Below, piece after piece: positions 14,564 through 49,145 of a DNA stretch of 64,000 bases. The DNA comes from Candidatus Eiseniibacteriota bacterium (lineage in GTDB: Bacteria > Eisenbacteria > RBG-16-71-46 > JABDJR01), in contig CAVXKA010000003.1 of NCBI GenBank assembly GCA_963762255.1, positions 320,001 to 384,000 on the forward strand, written 5' to 3'. The notes beneath the pieces are model-generated. The model was not told where the DNA came from and did no database searches. It was given only the letters and a program-made list of their open reading frames with translations. The position numbers were made by a program, and so were the translations under genes. Within the stretch, counting starts at the first letter, position 1, and the number at the start of each line of letters is the position of its first letter.

Positions 14564-15052
14564 CTAGATCAACCGAAGCACGATCCGCAGCGCGAGGTTC
14601 GCGTACACCCCGGCCAGGAGATCGTCGACCACGATCCCCTTCCCGCCGGGCAGCCGTTGCGAGCGCCCCGCTGGAAACGGCTTCACGACATCGAAGATGC
14701 GAAACAGGACGAAGCCGATCCCGAGCGCGACCCACCGCGCGGTCCCGTCACCGGCGGCCGTGACACCGAGCATGGTGACGATCATGCCCGCCACCTCGTC
14801 GATCGTGATCGCCTTGGCATCGTGACCGTAGGTCTTCTCGGCGCGGTCGCTCACGACAACCGCATAGCCGGTCACCACGGCGAGCAGCGCGACTTGTATC
14901 CAGAGCGGCCACGCCATGAACGGGTAGAGCAGCGGCACTACCGCCAGCGAGGTCCACGTCGCCGGCGCGAAGGGAGCGGCTTCGCCGATCAGGAAGAACG
15001 TCGCACCCAGTCGCACGCCGAGCGGCGTGGGCGCAGAGGGGGTGCGCTTCAT
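14564..15052 (-). CDS. pgpA: phosphatidylglycerophosphatase A
   Basis: APATWTS, DAKAITIDEVAG, FRIFDVVKPFP, GIVVDDLLAG. Confidence 0.92.
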   Translation of the reverse strand: MKRTPSAPTPLGVRLGATFFLIGEAAPFAPATWTSLAVVPLLYPFMAWPLWIQVALLAVVTGYAVVVSDRAEKTYGHDAKAITIDEVAGMIVTMLGVTAAGDGTARWVALGIGFVLFRIFDVVKPFPAGRSQRLPGGKGIVVDDLLAGVYANLALRIVLRLI

Positions 15053-15660
15053 TCGTCGTCGTCCATGGACTTGCGCCCCTGGAGCGCGCGGGCGAGCGTG
15101 GCCTGGTCGGAGTACTCGAGGTCGCCCCCGACGGGGATGCCGCGGGCGATCCGGGTCACCCGCACCGCGCTCTCCTTGAGAAGATCGGCGAGAAAGTGCG
15201 CGGTGGCCTCGCCGGGCGGGTTGGGATTGGTGGCGAGGATGACCTCACGAACCTCACCGTACTTGACGCGCTCGATGAGTTCGCGCGCCCGGATGTCGTC
15301 CGGTCCCATGTTCTCGAGCGGGTTAAGCGCTCCACGCAGCACGTGGTACTGCCCCCGAAACCCGCCGCTCGCTTCGACCGCGAGCACGTCCATCGGCTGC
15401 TCGACCACGCAGATGACGTCGCGCTGTCGTTTCTGATCGCGGCAGATAAGACAGGGATCGTCCTCGGTGAAGTTCCCGCAGACGGTGCAGGTATGCACCT
15501 GCTCCTTCACCGCGCGGATCGCTTCGGCGAGCGCCAGCGCCTCTTCACGCGGAGCCTTCAGAAGGAAGAACGCGAGACGTTGCGCGCTCTTGCGGCCCAC
15601 GCCGGGCAGCTTGCTGAGCTCGTCGACCAGGGTCTCCACGGAACGGCTTGAGAACTGCAT
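15049..15660 (-). CDS. recR: recombination mediator RecR
   Basis: LPGVGRKSAQRLA, C4 zinc finger, TRIARGIPVGGDLEY. Confidence 0.97.
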   Translation of the reverse strand: MQFSSRSVETLVDELSKLPGVGRKSAQRLAFFLLKAPREEALALAEAIRAVKEQVHTCTVCGNFTEDDPCLICRDQKRQRDVICVVEQPMDVLAVEASGGFRGQYHVLRGALNPLENMGPDDIRARELIERVKYGEVREVILATNPNPPGEATAHFLADLLKESAVRVTRIARGIPVGGDLEYSDQATLARALQGRKSMDDDE

Positions 15661-15678
15661 GGGCGGGTTTGCCGGCGC

Positions 15679-15999
15679 CTAGAACATGCCGGGGAGCCCC
15701 ATCCCCCCGGTTGCTTTGGCCATTTCCTTCTGCATGAGCTCCTCGGCCTGCCGGCGCGCTTCACTGAACGCGGCCATCAGCATGTCCTCGAGCATCTCGA
15801 CGTCCTCCGGATCGACCGCGTCCGGCTTGATCTTGACGGACAGCAACTCCTGCTTGCCGTTCATGCGCACGGTGACCATGCCTCCGCCGGCCGTGCCCTC
15901 CACCTCGCGGCCGGCCAGATCCTCCTGGACGCGCGCCATCTTGGATTGCATCTCCTGGGCCTGCTTCATCAGCTTGCCCAGGTCTCCCATCCCCTTCAT
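15679..15999 (-). CDS. ybaB: YbaB/EbfC nucleoid-associated protein
   Basis: MKQAQEMQ, AGGGMVTV, DPEDVEMLED; between dnaX and recR. Confidence 0.95.
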   Translation of the reverse strand: MKGMGDLGKLMKQAQEMQSKMARVQEDLAGREVEGTAGGGMVTVRMNGKQELLSVKIKPDAVDPEDVEMLEDMLMAAFSEARRQAEELMQKEMAKATGGMGLPGMF

Positions 16000-16054
16000 G
16001 GTGTCGCTCTCCTGATCGTTTGGAAGTCCGTGTTGCGGCGCGCGGGCGAGCGCT

Positions 16055-17881
16055 CTAGGGAAGCACCTCGCCGTCGAACATGTCGAGGGCCTTTTGCAGC
16101 ATCGGCTCGTCGTTGAAGAGCTGCCCCATGCTGCGCGTGTCCTTCGCCGGGGGGGGAGGCGGCGGTTCATCCGCAGGGGCCGCCTCCTTCGTGACGGGGG
16201 CCGCCTCCTTTGCAGCGGGGGGCGCCTCCTTCGTCTCTTTCGCCTCTTTCGTCTCTTTCGCCGCCGCAGCCGGCTTCGGGGCGGACTTCGGCGCTACGGT
16301 CGGGCCCGCTTTCGGCGCTGCCCCCGAGGCCGCTTTCGGCGCGGCAGGTTTCGAGGCGCCCTCGATGCGCACCTCCGGCGTCTTCACGCCGAGGCCCCCA
16401 AGAAGCTCGCGGAAGAGCGTCTGCGTCTCGGGATCGCGCAGGATCTGCGTGAGCAGTCCTGCCCCCGAGCCGGCCCTGACCCGGAGCGCGCCGTCCGCGT
16501 CCGCTCCCGCGAACTCCGTTGCGTGGAGCGTTCCCCACAGCCGCATCGAGCGCGTGCGCAGCGCTTCGAGGAAGGCCCCCCACACGCCGCCCGGCTCCGA
16601 GGGGCGCGGCGGCGCGGGTGCGGGACGTGGCGCGGCGGGCGTTGCCACTGCCGCCTGGGCCGGCGCTTCCCCGCCCAATCGCGCCTCCAGATCCACCAGG
16701 CGCCGCGCGATCTCGGCGAGCGGCACCCGAGCCGCCGACTGCGCCATCTCAGCCAGCGCCAACTCCAACGTCAGCCGCGGATGATCGCTGCGCCGCAGGG
16801 ACACCGCGGTCTCGGCGGCGCGGTCCACCATCTCCACGAGCGTCTCGCGCGGGTACTTCTCGGCCTGGGCGCGATAGCGCGGAATCTCCGACTCCGGGAT
16901 GTCCAGGATGGAGGCAAGCGCCGGGTCGATGCGCAGGAGGAGCAGGTCGCGCCAGTGCGAGGTCAGGCTCTCGGCGACTTCACCCAGGTCGGCGCCTCTG
17001 GCGTATACCTCGTCGAGGAGCCGCAACGCTCCGGCAGCGTCGGCCGCAGCGAGGAGATCGCCGAGCACGAAGCAGAAGTCCGAGCCCACCAGGCCCAGCG
17101 TGCGCTCCACCACCGCGCGGTCCACCGGGCCGTCGGCGGCGGAGATGATCTGATCCATGAGCGAGAGCGCGTCGCGGAGCCCGCCGGCGGCGCGGCGCGC
17201 GACCAGGGCCAGCGCCTCGGGGGTGACCTCCACATGCGGCGTCTCTTCCCCGGTGGCCTTGTTCTGCTCGTCGATGGTCCGGTTCTCGCGCGCGAGGACC
17301 TCGGTCAACCGCGCGGAGATCTCGCGGGCCGGGATACGCGCGAAATCGAAGCGCTGGCACCTCGACAGGATCGTCCCCGGAACTTTGAAAGGCTCCGTGG
17401 TGGCGAAAACGAAGATCACGTGCTTGGGCGGCTCCTCGAGGGTCTTCAGGAGCGCGTTGAACGCCTCCGTGGTGAGCATGTGCACTTCGTCGATGATGTA
17501 GACCTTGTAGCGCATGCCCGACGGCGCGTAGCGCACGTTCTCGCGAAGCTCGCGCACCTCGTTGATGCCGCGGTTCGAGGCGCCGTCGATCTCGAGCACG
17601 TCGAGGCTGCGTCCGCTGGTGATGTCGAGGCAGGGCGTGCACACGTTGCACGGAGTGGCGGTCGGACCCTGCTCGCAGTTGAGCGCCTTGGCGAGGATGC
17701 GGGCGGCGGTGGTCTTGCCGACACCGCGAGGGCCGCAGAAGAGGTAGGCGTGGGCGACGCGATCGACCGCGATCGCGTTGGCCAGCGTCTGGGTGACGTG
17801 CTTCTGGCCGACGACGTCCTCGAAGGATTGCGGACGGTACTTGAGGGCCAGAACCCGGTACGACTCGGATGCCTTTGCCAT
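16055..17881 (-). CDS. dnaX: DNA polymerase III subunit gamma/tau
   Basis: LALKYRP, GPRGVGKTT, IDEVHML, LKTLEEPP, SRCQRF; Pro/Ala/Lys-rich C-terminal linker. Confidence 0.97.
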   Translation of the reverse strand: MAKASESYRVLALKYRPQSFEDVVGQKHVTQTLANAIAVDRVAHAYLFCGPRGVGKTTAARILAKALNCEQGPTATPCNVCTPCLDITSGRSLDVLEIDGASNRGINEVRELRENVRYAPSGMRYKVYIIDEVHMLTTEAFNALLKTLEEPPKHVIFVFATTEPFKVPGTILSRCQRFDFARIPAREISARLTEVLARENRTIDEQNKATGEETPHVEVTPEALALVARRAAGGLRDALSLMDQIISAADGPVDRAVVERTLGLVGSDFCFVLGDLLAAADAAGALRLLDEVYARGADLGEVAESLTSHWRDLLLLRIDPALASILDIPESEIPRYRAQAEKYPRETLVEMVDRAAETAVSLRRSDHPRLTLELALAEMAQSAARVPLAEIARRLVDLEARLGGEAPAQAAVATPAAPRPAPAPPRPSEPGGVWGAFLEALRTRSMRLWGTLHATEFAGADADGALRVRAGSGAGLLTQILRDPETQTLFRELLGGLGVKTPEVRIEGASKPAAPKAASGAAPKAGPTVAPKSAPKPAAAAKETKEAKETKEAPPAAKEAAPVTKEAAPADEPPPPPPAKDTRSMGQLFNDEPMLQKALDMFDGEVLP

Positions 17882-17957
17882 GGTTCTCTTCGCCCCCATC
17901 GCCTCATCCCGCCGCGGTCGGACACACCGACCGCGCCGGGCGGGCCTTCAGAAGAAA

Positions 17958-18229
17958 GGGGTCGTGCACCCGCTGTCGACCATCGCCGTACGCCGGCCGC
18001 AAGCAGCCAGCTCGGGCCAGGGACACCGACGGCACACCGAGCGTCTTGCTTACCGCTGCTACCTTCCGGTCCTCACGGGGTTCACAATGCTCGGTTGCGT
18101 CGGACCCGGCCTTCAACGCCGCCGTCTCTTACGGCCCGCACGCCCGACGAGGGCCTCGAACGGGAATTCAGCCCCGCTATAGCGGATTGCGGATGCAGGG
18201 CACCGCTAACTCCCCGCCTAGCACGACCC
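17958..18229 (-). ncRNA. ffs: signal recognition particle RNA, large bacterial type with Alu domain
   Basis: Helix 8 CCGTGAGGACCGGAAGGTAGCAGCGG; 5' GGGTCGTGC pairs with 3' GCACGACCC; ~270 nt; directly upstream of dnaX. Confidence 0.9.
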
Positions 18230-18277
18230 GCAAACAGACCGGTTCCGATCGGCCACTGCGGCAGGCGCCGACAAGAT

Positions 18278-18353
18278 TGGTGGAGATGAGCGGGATCGAA
18301 CCGCCGACCTCCTCGTTGCGAACGAGGCGCTCTCCCATCTGAGCTACATCCCC
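18278..18353 (-). tRNA. tRNA-Ala(CGC)
   Basis: GGGGATGTAGCTCAG...CCTCG TT CGC AA CGAGG...GGTTCGATCC...CTCCACCA, 76 nt. Confidence 0.95.
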
Positions 18354-18475
18354 AAAACAGCTTCGCGAGCCGGATTCGTCCCCGGGCGGGAGCCCGGGGA
18401 CGATCGCGAGCGACGTATTCTCCCACATCGGTGCGGGTGCGGGCAACAGCCGCAACACACGGCGTGCTGCGGCTA

Positions 18476-18567
<92 letters not shown>

Positions 18568-18643
18568 GCAAAACCATAGGGCGAGTGGGCGAACGAAACT
18601 GGCAAACCCACAGCCGGAGATCCACGACCGCCGCGCTATCTTC

Positions 18644-18694
18644 TGGCGGAGAGGGAGGGATGGTCGCGCTCGGCTTCGCCTCGCACGACATCCC
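18644..18694 (-). repeat. duplicated tRNA-Ser 3' end (18 nt) preceded by a GNA-capped hairpin
   Basis: ATCCCTCCCTCTCCGCCA repeated 108 bp downstream of the tRNA-Ser(GGA) 3' end; hairpin GGGAT GTCGTGC GA GGC GAA GCC GA GCGCGAC C ATCCC. Confidence 0.85.
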
Positions 18695-18750
18695 CTGAAC
18701 CTCGGCGCCTTCACCGGGATCGTCGAACCACAACCCGGTCAGCCAAGCCT

Positions 18751-18842
<92 letters not shown>

Positions 18843-19000
18843 GCGAAAGCCGGAATACGAAACCCCGCAATCGGATGGGCCGCATGTCCTGCGGGGGCCG
18901 GCGACCCAGGTCCAAAGCGGGCGCCGGATTATAGCGGAAACGCTCCCCGTGGGGCGAGGGAGTTTGCGGCCACCGTCCACGAATCCGCCGCTGCCGCCCC

Positions 19001-19480
19001 CTACGAATCGGTGCGCGCGTCGCGACGCAGGCGCTCGAAGAAGGTCTTGAGCAGGAGACCGCATTCCTCCGCCAGCGGTCCGGGGACGATCTCGGTGTGG
19101 TGGTTGAGCGCCTCGTGCCCCGAGACGTCGATCACCGACCCCAGCACGCCCCGCTTGGGATCCCTGGCCCCATACACCAGGCGACTCACGCGGCCCAGGA
19201 AGATCGCCCCGGCGCACATGAGGCAGGGCTCCAGCGTCACGTAGAGCGACGACCCTTCGATCCGCCAGCTCTCGAGCGTGTTGGCGGCGGCGGTGATGGC
19301 CAGCACTTCGGCGTGGGCGGTGGGGTCCTGCAGCGCCTCGGTGCGGTTGTGACCGCGCCCGAGAATGCGTCCACCCGAGACCACCACGGCCCCCACCGGT
19401 ACCTCGCCCTCCTCCGCGGCCAACTGCGCCTCGGCAAGGGCGAGCTGCATCCATCGCAGATCCTCCTCAGGCGTTGGCAC
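19001..19480 (-). CDS. tadA: tRNA adenosine(34) deaminase TadA
   Basis: EVPVGAV, TAHAE, TLEPCLMCAGA; start uncertain (GTG 19480 or 19507). Confidence 0.93.
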   Translation of the reverse strand: MPTPEEDLRWMQLALAEAQLAAEEGEVPVGAVVVSGGRILGRGHNRTEALQDPTAHAEVLAITAAANTLESWRIEGSSLYVTLEPCLMCAGAIFLGRVSRLVYGARDPKRGVLGSVIDVSGHEALNHHTEIVPGPLAEECGLLLKTFFERLRRDARTDS

Positions 19481-19519
19481 GATCGGGGAAGCGCCGGGAT
19501 CTATCACGCGCAGGCTCGA

Positions 19520-20242
19520 TCAGGGGGTCTTGCCGCCCGCGGCGGGCGCGGCCGAGCCGGTCAGGTTCGGCATGGTCGCCACCGCCTCGTTCGCGGCTTC
19601 GATCGCCACTTTCTCGATCAGCGGCGGGTCCGGCACCGAGCTGGTGCTGGTCGTTCGCGCCTCGCCCGACATGGTGGAGCGGACGTTGAAATCGGGATTG
19701 TAGGGCGGCGATTTGGCGAGCTTCGTGTGGTTGGCCGCCCACAGGAGCGTCGCATCGGGAGCGTACATCTCCACGGTCAGCCCCACCGTGGTGTTGGAAG
19801 TGCCCTCCTGGGTCGGTTCGAGCTTGAGACGTTCCCACTTGCTGACGTCCATGCACAGCACCGCGTCGTTGCCGGTCGCGTCGAGCAACTTGCCGAGCGG
19901 GGCCGCGTCGATGAGCCGTCGCTTGCGCCAGCTCTCCGCCACCCGGCTGTAGTCCTCCTGGACTCCCGCCTGCCGCACCTCGGACTCGAACATCTCCACC
20001 GTCGAGATCACGTACTTGGTGTTGGCCCCCATCGCCTGAAGGATGTAGTTGTACATCACGTCGGCGTCCGGGTTGCCTGAGGTATTCGTGAAGGTGAGCA
20101 CGGCCACCTGCTGCACTTGATAGTCTTGAGCGTTCGGGGCGAGGTCCACCTTGACCTTCACTCCTGCGCTCCCGCCCCCGCTGGACGCCTGACATCCCGC
20201 CAACAGCAACGCCGCCGACATCATTCCGATCCATCGTCTCAT
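19520..20242 (-). CDS. lipoprotein of unknown function
   Basis: Signal peptide with lipobox LLLAGC; AGGGAGG upstream. Confidence 0.7.
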   Translation of the reverse strand: MRRWIGMMSAALLLAGCQASSGGGSAGVKVKVDLAPNAQDYQVQQVAVLTFTNTSGNPDADVMYNYILQAMGANTKYVISTVEMFESEVRQAGVQEDYSRVAESWRKRRLIDAAPLGKLLDATGNDAVLCMDVSKWERLKLEPTQEGTSNTTVGLTVEMYAPDATLLWAANHTKLAKSPPYNPDFNVRSTMSGEARTTSTSSVPDPPLIEKVAIEAANEAVATMPNLTGSAAPAAGGKTP

Positions 20243-20336
20243 GAAGCCGCTTCCTCCCTGGGCCTTCAGCGGGGTGAACCAACGAGCAGATCCGGGACCA
20301 CGATACGCCTGGCGTGCAGTTCCGACAACAGCAGGC

Positions 20337-20855
20337 TCAGTCGCGAGGGTACGTCTCCTTGTAGTGGAGATAGTTCTCGACCCCGAAGAGGATGAGGTCT
20401 CTCACCTCGTCATCGGTGACTCGCCGGGCCACTCGGCCGGGCCGACCCATGACGAGGCTGCGCGGAGGCACCCGCGTACCCGGAGTGACCAGAGAGCCCG
20501 CGCCCACGATCGACTCTTCGCCGATGACCGCGCCGTCCATGATCGTCGAGCCCATCCCGATCAGAACGCGGTCCTTCACCGTGCAACCGTGCAGCAGGAT
20601 GTTGTGCCCCCCCACGACGTCGTTGCCGATGATCGTCGGCCACGTGTCGATGGAGACGTGGATCGTCGAATTGTCCTGGATGTTGGTGCGATCACCGATG
20701 CGAATGAAGTTCACGTCGCCGCGCACCACGACATTGAACCAGAGGCTGGCGTGCTCTCCGAGAACCGTGTCGCCGATCACGGTGGCGGTGGGAGCCAGAT
20801 ACGCGGATGCGGGAATGACGGGGGTCTTGCCGTGGTGCGGGAGAATGAGCGGCAT
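20337..20855 (-). CDS. gamma-class carbonic anhydrase family (YrdA-like hexapeptide repeat protein)
   Basis: VVRGDVNFIRIGDRTNIQDNSTIH, GHNILLHGC. Confidence 0.9.
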   Translation of the reverse strand: MPLILPHHGKTPVIPASAYLAPTATVIGDTVLGEHASLWFNVVVRGDVNFIRIGDRTNIQDNSTIHVSIDTWPTIIGNDVVGGHNILLHGCTVKDRVLIGMGSTIMDGAVIGEESIVGAGSLVTPGTRVPPRSLVMGRPGRVARRVTDDEVRDLILFGVENYLHYKETYPRD

Positions 20856-20878
20856 CGGTCGCTCCGTGCGAGAGGAGA

Positions 20879-20955
20879 TGGTGGGCCCAGAGGGACTCGA
20901 ACCCCCAACCTTTTGGTCCGTAGCCAAACGCTCTATCCAATTGAGCTATGGGCCC
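20879..20955 (-). tRNA. tRNA-Arg(ACG)
   Basis: GGGCCCATAGCTCAATTGGATAGAGCG TTTGG CT ACG GA CCAAA...GGTTCGAGTCC...CCCACCA, 77 nt. Confidence 0.95.
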
Positions 20956-48272: not shown

Positions 48273-48363
<91 letters not shown>

Positions 48364-48461: not shown

Positions 48462-48809
48462 TCAGGCGGGGATCGGTTCGTGCATCTCGCCGTTGGGGTA
48501 GTACGTGCGGTCGAAGACGATCACATGCTTCGTCTCGTCCTCGACCATCATGCGCACCCAGTGCTTGGCGTCGGGCGCGATCACGTAGAGCCGCTCGCTC
48601 AGCCGCTCCGCGGCATCGTAATTATCGATAGGGACCCAGGCCCCCCAGAGGGCGTCCGTGCTGTGAACATGGGCGGTGTAATCGGATTCTTCCATCAGAG
48701 ACCGCAGCCCCGCGAACACGGTCTGGCAGTCCTCGGACTGAATGCAGATCGTGTAGTTGCCGCGGAGCGCGCAGGCCCGGTAGTCGCAAGGCTTCTGGCT
48801 CTTTCCCAT
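48462..48809 (-). CDS. hypothetical protein (115 aa)
   Basis: GGAGGGG RBS then MGKSQKPC...; lower-GC upstream region; no recognisable motif. Confidence 0.55.
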   Translation of the reverse strand: MGKSQKPCDYRACALRGNYTICIQSEDCQTVFAGLRSLMEESDYTAHVHSTDALWGAWVPIDNYDAAERLSERLYVIAPDAKHWVRMMVEDETKHVIVFDRTYYPNGEMHEPIPA

Positions 48810-48918
48810 GTCGCATCCCCCTCCCACAATTCCACCTTCCAGCAAATATTCTGCCGTTTCTTCGGGGGGGATCTCTAGAACCTAATGTCGATACGAGTTA
48901 TCTACAATCGACAATGAC

Positions 48919-49075
48919 CTGGGATGCTCCCGCTCGGCGCTCCGCGCCTCGCAGGAGATCCCGCAACCGCAATGCAAGACCTTGGCGGAGGGACTGGGAT
49001 GCTCCCGCTCGGCGCTCCGCGCCTCGCAGGAGATCCCGCAACCGCAATGCAAGAACTTGGCGGAGGGACTGGGAT
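48919..49075 (-). repeat. 75-bp tandem repeat of tRNA-Ser(TGA) 3' end plus GNA-capped hairpin
   Basis: CTGGGAT at 48919, 48994 and 49069 (period 75); two near-identical units; distal unit truncated after ATCCCAG. Confidence 0.92.
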
Positions 49076-49145
49076 TCGAACCCAGGGAGCCTTTCGGCTC
49101 ATCGGTTTTCAAGACCGACGCCTTCGACCGCTCGGCCATCCCTCC
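49058..49145 (-). tRNA. tRNA-Ser(TGA)
   Basis: TCGGT CT TGA AA ACCGA anticodon arm, long variable arm, ends GCCA. Confidence 0.95.

Follow-up and report, generated by a model that had tools for sequence, protein, structure and literature searches.

Repeat units behind tRNA-Ser genes of a Candidatus Eisenbacteria family carry a conserved sense-strand hairpin and resemble the RtT repeats of Escherichia coli

The DNA analysed here, referred to as the window, is a stretch of 64,000 nucleotides (G000:C3:320001-384000) from a 4.14-Mb genome with a G+C content of 67% that is assembled in three contigs. Two of its tRNA-Ser genes, located about 30 kb apart, are followed on the same strand by repeat units; the initial annotation had described these tRNA-Ser-linked repeats, and they are real, with 2.1 copies of a 75-bp unit present after tRNA-Ser(TGA) and one 108-bp unit present after tRNA-Ser(GGA). 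The relevant features are as follows:

49058-49145, minus strand: tRNA-Ser(TGA), head of the array (ARAGORN; Rfam tRNA model, 61.4 bits)
48983-49057, minus strand: unit 1 of the TGA locus, 75 nt (sequence; Tandem Repeats Finder; covariance model R1, 70.4 bits)
49038-49057, minus strand: spacer of unit 1, 20 nt (sequence)
48996-49037, minus strand: hairpin of unit 1, 42 nt (sequence)
48983-48995, minus strand: single-stranded tail of unit 1, identical to the tRNA 3' end (sequence)
48919-48982, minus strand: unit 2 of the TGA locus, truncated (sequence; R1, 44.9 bits, model positions 2-44 only)
48921-48962, minus strand: hairpin of unit 2 (sequence)
48273-48363, minus strand: tRNA-Ser(GCT), without a unit in the window, 2-5 units in relatives (ARAGORN)
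18752-18842, minus strand: tRNA-Ser(GGA) (ARAGORN; Rfam tRNA model, 55 bits)
18644-18751, minus strand: single unit of the GGA locus, 108 nt, between tRNA-Ser(GGA) and tRNA-Ser(CGA) (sequence; R1, 65.2 bits)
18716-18729, minus strand: T-arm-like remnant GGTTCGACGATCCC in the spacer of the GGA unit (sequence)
18657-18694, minus strand: hairpin of the GGA unit, 38 nt (sequence)
18644-18656, minus strand: tail of the GGA unit (sequence)
18478-18567, minus strand: tRNA-Ser(CGA), without a unit in the window, 1-6 units in relatives (ARAGORN)

The units are built on a three-part plan: a spacer comes first, next a GA-rich hairpin whose closing stem is GGGAT/ATCCC, and finally the last 17-18 nt of the tRNA including its CCA end. 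Tandem Repeats Finder reports the array behind tRNA-Ser(TGA) (48919-49075) with a period of 75, 2.1 copies and 98% matches. In unit 1, the 20-nt spacer leads into the 42-nt hairpin, GGGAT CTCCTGC GA GGCGC GGA GCGCC GA GCGGGAG C ATCCC, which is followed by AGTCCCTCCGCCA; from ATCCC to its end, this unit is a copy of the last 18 nt of tRNA-Ser(TGA). It folds with -38.9 kcal/mol (z = -2.9 versus shuffles). Both 75-bp units had originally been credited with the tRNA 3' end, and for unit 1 this is the case. Unit 2 repeats the spacer and the hairpin, but its match to unit 1 ends past ATCCCAG, 7 nt into the tRNA end, and the whole tRNA 3' end is hence not found behind it. The hairpin of the GGA unit (GGGAT GTCGTGC GA GGC GAA GCC GA GCGCGAC C ATCCC) follows the same plan and continues with TCCCTCTCCGCCA up to position 18644; its tail is the own 3' end of tRNA-Ser(GGA). 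The two compensatory swaps that were noted between the loci, together with the T.G wobble, the bulged C, the tandem GA/GA mismatch and the GNA cap, all match the sequence.

Within the 4.14-Mb genome, the GA-stem-GNA-stem-GA motif occurs in this context at three places only, and these are the units of the window. Among the 52 tRNA calls in this genome, Ser genes are the only ones whose last 15 nt without the CCA (bases 4-18 from the 3' end) are repeated elsewhere. Neither ARAGORN nor the Rfam tRNA model calls the units as tRNAs; both recover the true genes only. The GGA unit is embedded in a conserved same-strand housekeeping run (15049-20955, minus strand) in the order tRNA-Arg, tadA, tRNA-Ser(GGA), unit, tRNA-Ser(CGA), tRNA-Ala, large SRP RNA, dnaX and recR.

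We built a covariance model (R1) from 11 modules, the kind of search that had been suggested when the repeats were first described. Further copies are present in five related genomes and in one other metagenome-assembled genome (MAG). Matches to R1 are present in seven of the eight genomes of this Candidatus Eisenbacteria family; real units are present in six, because the match in G001 falls in a coding sequence. The two family members that lack units are represented by highly fragmented assemblies with a completeness of 75% and 88%. Apart from the G001 match, the 3-14 R1 matches per genome lie at tRNA-Ser loci; for the genomes with the highest numbers, G006 and G007 (13 and 14 matches at E <= 0.01), one match in each is the true tRNA-Ser(TGA) gene. 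The six carriers possess 2 (the genome of the window), 2, 9, 10, 11 and 12 complete tail-to-tail units. These are found at the TGA, GCT, GGA and CGA genes, hence at all four tRNA-Ser isoacceptors, with 0-6 units per locus, unit lengths of 75-114 nt and 57-95 bp between the repeats. Three tail types occur in the family, and each of them equals the end of the local tRNA. The genome of the window has the fewest units (two complete ones and a truncated one), and two of its four tRNA-Ser genes lack them altogether; the units are thus dispensable at a given locus.

Clear matches to R1 were confined to this family in the genomes sampled (151 of the 206 in the class; 151 from the phylum). A search pattern that does not depend on the hairpin yielded matches in 58 of the 206 class genomes; outside the family, these were chance matches or genuine tRNA-Ser genes lying close together, as judged on their first 80 letters, with one exception. 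In this genome (G011), a member of another Eisenbacteria family, a 125-nt unit is present behind tRNA-Ser(GGA) (L332 301-426, minus strand), and its closing stem, GGGGATT/AATCCC, surrounds an insert of unrelated sequence. A MAG labelled Deltaproteobacteria (CP070692.1) carries tadA, tRNA-Ser(GGA) and then a unit. When a loose pattern was used, 75 of the 85 matches (80 loci examined of at least 120) were true proteobacterial tRNA-Ser genes. Several weak R1 matches outside the family were discarded as candidate units: those at L031, L056 and L057 are coding sequence, and the one at L055 is an unrelated GC-rich tandem repeat. The latter (L055 1380-1590, genome G078) consists of a GC-rich hairpin (GGGGAGAGTCGCGCGACGAG...) repeated in tandem every ~55 bp, and it has no link to a tRNA.

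The initial annotation had proposed that the hairpin is a structure under selection, and the further copies, their compensatory changes, the preferential conservation of the hairpin and its strand preference support this. We assembled 51 modules from seven related genomes, 30 of them distinct and those within an array not independent of each other, and asked how well the proposed pairs are preserved. In an alignment that was fitted to the model, and with a structure that was itself derived from the same sequences, 83.3% of the paired cells could pair versus 74.0 ± 0.9% in shuffles, and 11 of the 17 pairs had changed on both sides versus 5.4 ± 1.3 in shuffles. None of 500 shuffles reached either the observed paired share or the observed number of two-sided changes, and controls in which the pairing partner was slid along the sequence gave 31-49% paired cells. 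The pairs 2-5/44-47 of the outer stem are invariant in the model alignment. When the first units at orthologous loci were compared across genomes, the identity was 0.71 for the hairpin, 0.45 for the spacer and 0.41 for random sequences; in 36 of 37 comparisons, the hairpin was the more similar part. Folding favors the sense over the antisense strand in 27 of the 30 distinct variants under RNA parameters and in 28 of the 30 under DNA parameters. On the sense strand, cells that do not hold standard pairs are mainly G.A (39) and G.U (15), followed by C.A (12) and U.C (6). Eighteen of the 30 variants possess the tandem GA/GA; in the others, standard pairs take its place. It is the sense-strand hairpin that is under selection.

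These data bear on the possibility that the units are scars of neutral duplication. A tRNA 3' fragment might once have arisen behind its gene, and unequal crossing-over and gene conversion might then have amplified and homogenised it, with the hairpin as a palindromic by-product. Much in the behavior of the arrays has this appearance: the number of units varies from none to six per locus among close genomes, terminal units are cut at differing points, units that reside in separate loci of one genome can be nearly identical, as at GCT and CGA in G006, and the genome of the window has few units in the first place. Changes in copy number, truncated ends and near-identical units across loci are indeed what unequal recombination together with gene conversion leads one to expect, and the turnover of the arrays agrees with a process in which the 17-18-nt tails recombine unequally and the four tRNA-Ser loci exchange units. 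However, neutral scars leave unexplained why the spacer has drifted to nearly random identity while the hairpin is kept, why compensatory changes affect most of its pairs, why the mismatches on the sense strand are biased to G.A and G.U, and why the same design is found in other phyla with unrelated inserts. We therefore consider a purely neutral origin of the units unlikely.

Two further structural candidates were rejected. Minimum free energy folds often pair the tail with the G-rich spacer in the manner of a pseudo-acceptor stem, but the energies of these duplexes are no better than those of random 25-mers (median rank 0.48, n = 35). The units are not whole tRNA pseudogenes either, as the spacers do not resemble the 5' parts of tRNA-Ser (z < 2.5 in 36 of 37); the spacer of the GGA unit with its T-arm-like remnant GGTTCGACGATCCC is the sole one with an above-chance likeness to tRNA-Ser (z 3.6).

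Two functional readings had been offered at the outset: a DNA element mobilised in trans by a HUH/REP or integron-type system, and a CCA-ended RNA cut from the tRNA transcript. The second fits the data better, given the architecture of the E. coli RtT repeats discussed below, whereas the first found no support. In its general form, the DNA-based reading envisages a non-autonomous mini-element directed at the T-loop of tRNA-Ser genes, which a recombinase recognising the folded single strand would move in trans, or else leftovers of genomic islands stacked behind the gene. Integrase sites in tRNA genes are marked by a direct repeat that spans the T-loop to the CCA end, and the repeats described here have the same extent and stand in tandem behind the gene like those left by islands and phages. 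All four tRNA-Ser genes are occupied, always with the tail of the local tRNA (three tail types); the hairpin at the TGA locus of G004 resembles those of other G004 loci, whose tail differs; and the preference for the sense hairpin under DNA parameters, too, would be compatible with folded single-stranded DNA. An island-like arrangement is found in G003 (L200 10340-11100, minus strand): behind the three TGA units lie an ORF of 440 nt, a hairpin, a tRNA-Ser(TGA) fragment that begins in the anticodon loop and comprises the 3' two-thirds of the gene, and a further unit. This arrangement looks like an att-type island duplication.

Several findings speak against a mobile or att-type element. The co-occurring HUH gene that such a system would call for was not detected, as the Y1 transposase family PF01797 had no match in any of five genomes, while the control search was positive in 6 of 14 known genomes. 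Cas1 was found in three of the five genomes and was absent from G006 and G007, the two genomes richest in R1 matches. The distances between the repeats are merely 57-95 bp, and, unlike in integron attC arrays, there are no gene cassettes between the units. Neither the neighbours of the arrays, which are ordinary genes (tadA, SRP RNA, dnaX, recR, ApbE, thiolase, DUF4153), nor the intervals of 1.6-11 kb between the GGA and CGA loci of relatives, which encode ordinary proteins, contain an integrase or a transposase, and no copies are present away from tRNA-Ser genes. The units thus differ from island or phage repeats in their spacing, in their flanks and in possessing a conserved hairpin with compensatory changes. 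With REP and REPIN elements they share a short imperfect palindrome with a strand-specific fold; unlike those that depend on a RAYT, they are not dispersed, number few per genome and lack the Y1 transposase. Taken together, we regard a mobile or att-type origin as quite improbable. A side observation concerns the Cas1 matches themselves: the one in the genome of the window (G000:C1:146736-147593) lies in an open frame of 720 aa and may be a fusion, as this is roughly double what is usual for Cas1; the corresponding frames comprise 566 aa in G004 and 570 aa in G003.

The hairpin might alternatively act in cis, as a terminator, a processing site or a block to exonucleases for tRNA-Ser transcripts, with the repeated tRNA end being incidental. 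The location of the units, always directly 3' of the tRNA and on the same strand, would suit such a role, as would the stability of the GC-rich hairpin, which should be able to stop 3' exonucleases; furthermore, a canonical terminator follows every CCA in the proteobacterial units described below. However, the hairpin of the Eisenbacteria units runs into ATCCC..GCCA without a T-run, and a scan for intrinsic terminators was blank at the units. Same-strand stable-RNA genes continue downstream of the GGA unit, which rules this unit out as a complete stop of transcription. Nor does a signal in cis account for the retention of the tail and for the presence of up to six copies. The probability that we attach to a cis-acting signal is accordingly small.

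The architecture of the units has a precedent. Knowledge of the RtT repeats of E. coli goes back to the late 1970s. In the E. coli K-12 sequence that we retrieved, tyrT is followed by one unit, tyrV, and 3.1 units of 178 bp, each of which ends with the last 19 nt of the tRNA (AATCC...CCA). The Rfam model for RtT (RF00391), which is limited to that family and was used as a positive control, matched four of these units with 133-137 bits; in its consensus, the 5' segment GgGaaGGAU pairs with the tRNA-derived AUCCuuCcC, and the last nine nt (ccaCCACCA) are unpaired. The units of the Eisenbacteria family share several of these traits: they stand in tandem, on the same strand and directly behind a tRNA gene; each complete unit ends with the exact 3' end of the tRNA from the T-loop to the CCA (17-18 nt here, 19 nt in E. 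coli); a stretch on the 5' side base-pairs with the T-stem strand contributed by the tRNA and thereby encloses a structured insert rich in GA or GC; the 3' CCA tail is unpaired; and one unit sits between two tRNA genes. The two groups differ in that the tRNA is Ser instead of Tyr, both of which possess long variable arms in bacteria, and that the hosts are Eisenbacteria instead of Enterobacteria. The units described here are also shorter (75-114 nt versus 178), their insert is one hairpin of ~32 nt instead of a multi-helix domain of ~100 nt, they contain no tpr-like ORF, and they occur at four loci per genome. In the E. coli record, rttR is listed as a small RNA belonging to the tyrT operon; two papers describe it as encoded by one repeat unit of this operon and as possibly bearing on the stringent response.

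At the level of sequence, the two groups cannot be connected by Rfam models. RF00391 produced no match in the window at its gathering score (45 bits), none in both loci of the window at E <= 10, and none in the loci of seven relatives at E <= 1; with the same thresholds applied to these three sets of sequences, no other Rfam family matched the units. Common descent with RtT is thus not established, and the similarity may have arisen by convergence. The initial annotation had named similarity to an already described Rfam family as a refuting outcome; a match at the sequence level did not appear, although the kind of element is already known. The design is hence known in kind from RtT, and the Ser-linked units are absent from Rfam.

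We favor the reading that the units form a co-transcribed, RtT-type repeat RNA in the trailer of tRNA-Ser transcripts, a proposal derived from comparative analysis to which we give roughly even confidence. Read-through from the tRNA-Ser promoters would transcribe the units, and the position of the GGA unit inside a same-strand run of stable-RNA genes was counted in favor of co-transcription. In the transcript, the 3' strand of the T-stem from the tRNA fragment would pair with the upstream GGGA(U/C) and thereby close the GA-rich hairpin, and the last 13 nt, consisting of the 3' strand of the acceptor stem and GCCA, would remain single-stranded. The tRNA 3'-end machinery might then cut at every repeated tRNA end and release stable hairpin RNAs of ~75-110 nt that display a copy of the tRNA-Ser 3' end. 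Such an RNA would probably imitate tRNA 3' ends toward a factor that recognises them, or divert that factor as a decoy. The comparison with RtT is one of architecture and names no mechanism.

Related arrangements are present in proteobacterial metagenome contigs. We scanned metagenomes for sequences in which something other than a T-loop precedes a Ser-type tail; this yielded at least 120 loci, many of which are chance matches in coding DNA. In at least 17 loci, a tRNA-Ser is located 130-230 nt upstream of the Ser-type tail, and the tail equals the tRNA's own end in 11 of the 13 loci examined among the matches listed; in the remaining two, it differs by one base (L252) or at the junction and in the last base (L283). 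In these units, the CCA is followed by a terminator, and a GGATGAGAAC-like motif and a T-arm half are also present; by eye, the latter (GTTCGA) was recognised in 11 of 14 units. Their 3' part consists of GC-rich hairpins with GAA or GCA loops, followed by (A)ATCCC and the tail. Judged by these features, the proteobacterial units have the appearance of a tRNA 3' fragment whose T-loop has received a structured insert, and in this they match the E. coli repeats. Weak matches to the RtT model were obtained for the units of L270 and L265 (23-24 bits, E 0.45-0.67). From their sequences, these metagenomic tRNA-Ser units appear to be a sister group of RtT that current models do not cover. RtT-like units of 130-230 nt were noted in L205, L228, L265, L250, L270, L311, L240, L248, L252, L209, L223 and L281; those in L270 (two units) and L311 (three units) stand in tandem.

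One of these loci provides a connection to a described RNA family. The Rfam model sX4 (RF02223) consists of a tRNA-Ser and its trailer, and locus L265 scores above the sX4 cut-off (100.8 bits), which points to a Xanthomonas-like source of this contig. Behind the tRNA in question, L265 carries an RtT-like unit. The sX4 model leaves this unit out, and its matches in the window (18-27 bits) stem from the tRNA itself. For the Xanthomonas sX4 RNA, a northern band of 280-300 nt was reported versus an expected size of 156 nt (PMC3300014). The first ~15 nt of many spacers, right after the CCA (e.g., L195 2833-2850), share a loose motif, AGGYWRGCAACT, which may be due to chance; the sX4 consensus after the tRNA, GGcGAcuaG, is similar to AGGYWRGCAACT.

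Units of the same design, with unrelated inserts, are thus seen in the Eisenbacteria family of the window, in another family of Eisenbacteria and in proteobacterial contigs from metagenomes. This recurrence suggests that what selection keeps is the combination of a T-arm-like stem, an insert and a tRNA 3' tail. As a bolder extension, RtT-like units might form a widespread class of RNAs in distant phyla that mimic the tRNA 3' end, as a natural RNase P external guide to RNAs containing GGAGAGG/GGAGGGA, as the precursor of an 18-nt RNA of the tRF-3 type, or as a decoy for sensors of uncharged ends; in our estimate, this is a long shot. Each unit may in this case be regarded as a T-arm with an expanded loop, joined to the 3' strand of the acceptor stem and the CCA, with the tail acting in trans. 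RNase P external guide sequences are engineered molecules in which a hairpin is combined with a single-stranded antisense stretch ending in NCCA-3', and the units resemble them in having a hairpin followed by a single-stranded NCCA-3' stretch, a resemblance and nothing beyond it. Counts of potential tail targets in the genome of the window (GGAGGGACT, 39; GGAGAGGGA, 49) were uninformative. We also considered the tail as a mimic of the anti-Shine-Dalgarno sequence; this is unlikely, as the 16S rRNA ends in GGATCACCTCCTTTCT and CCTCC is found only in the TGA-type tail, most units carrying CCCTCTCC.

Whatever their activity, the units provide comparative material with which the role of RtT can be addressed, and rttR of E. 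coli together with the sX4 locus of Xanthomonas offers tractable stand-ins for this purpose. For genome annotation, they imply that copies of a tRNA 3' end trailing the gene need not be the att sites of an island.

With respect to transcription, the data consist of hints. A metatranscriptome contig from a relative (~85% identity) covers positions 48966-49046, a finding from one library that may include DNA. A second metatranscriptome contig of a relative covers the downstream Cys-rich ORF at a depth of 18 and continues into a hairpin-like end. Along with the northern band reported for sX4, these contigs are weak indications that the units are transcribed. A sigma-70 scan found no promoter-like site at the units, although the model may not suit this phylum, and among sequencing runs none contained the genome of the window (best word share, 0.24); uncovered parts and depth ratios across the repeats were left out of consideration. 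The Cys-rich ORF encodes 127 aa (48462-48845, minus strand), lies between the TGA array and tRNA-Ser(GCT) and has no Pfam match; a similar ORF trails the array in G005.
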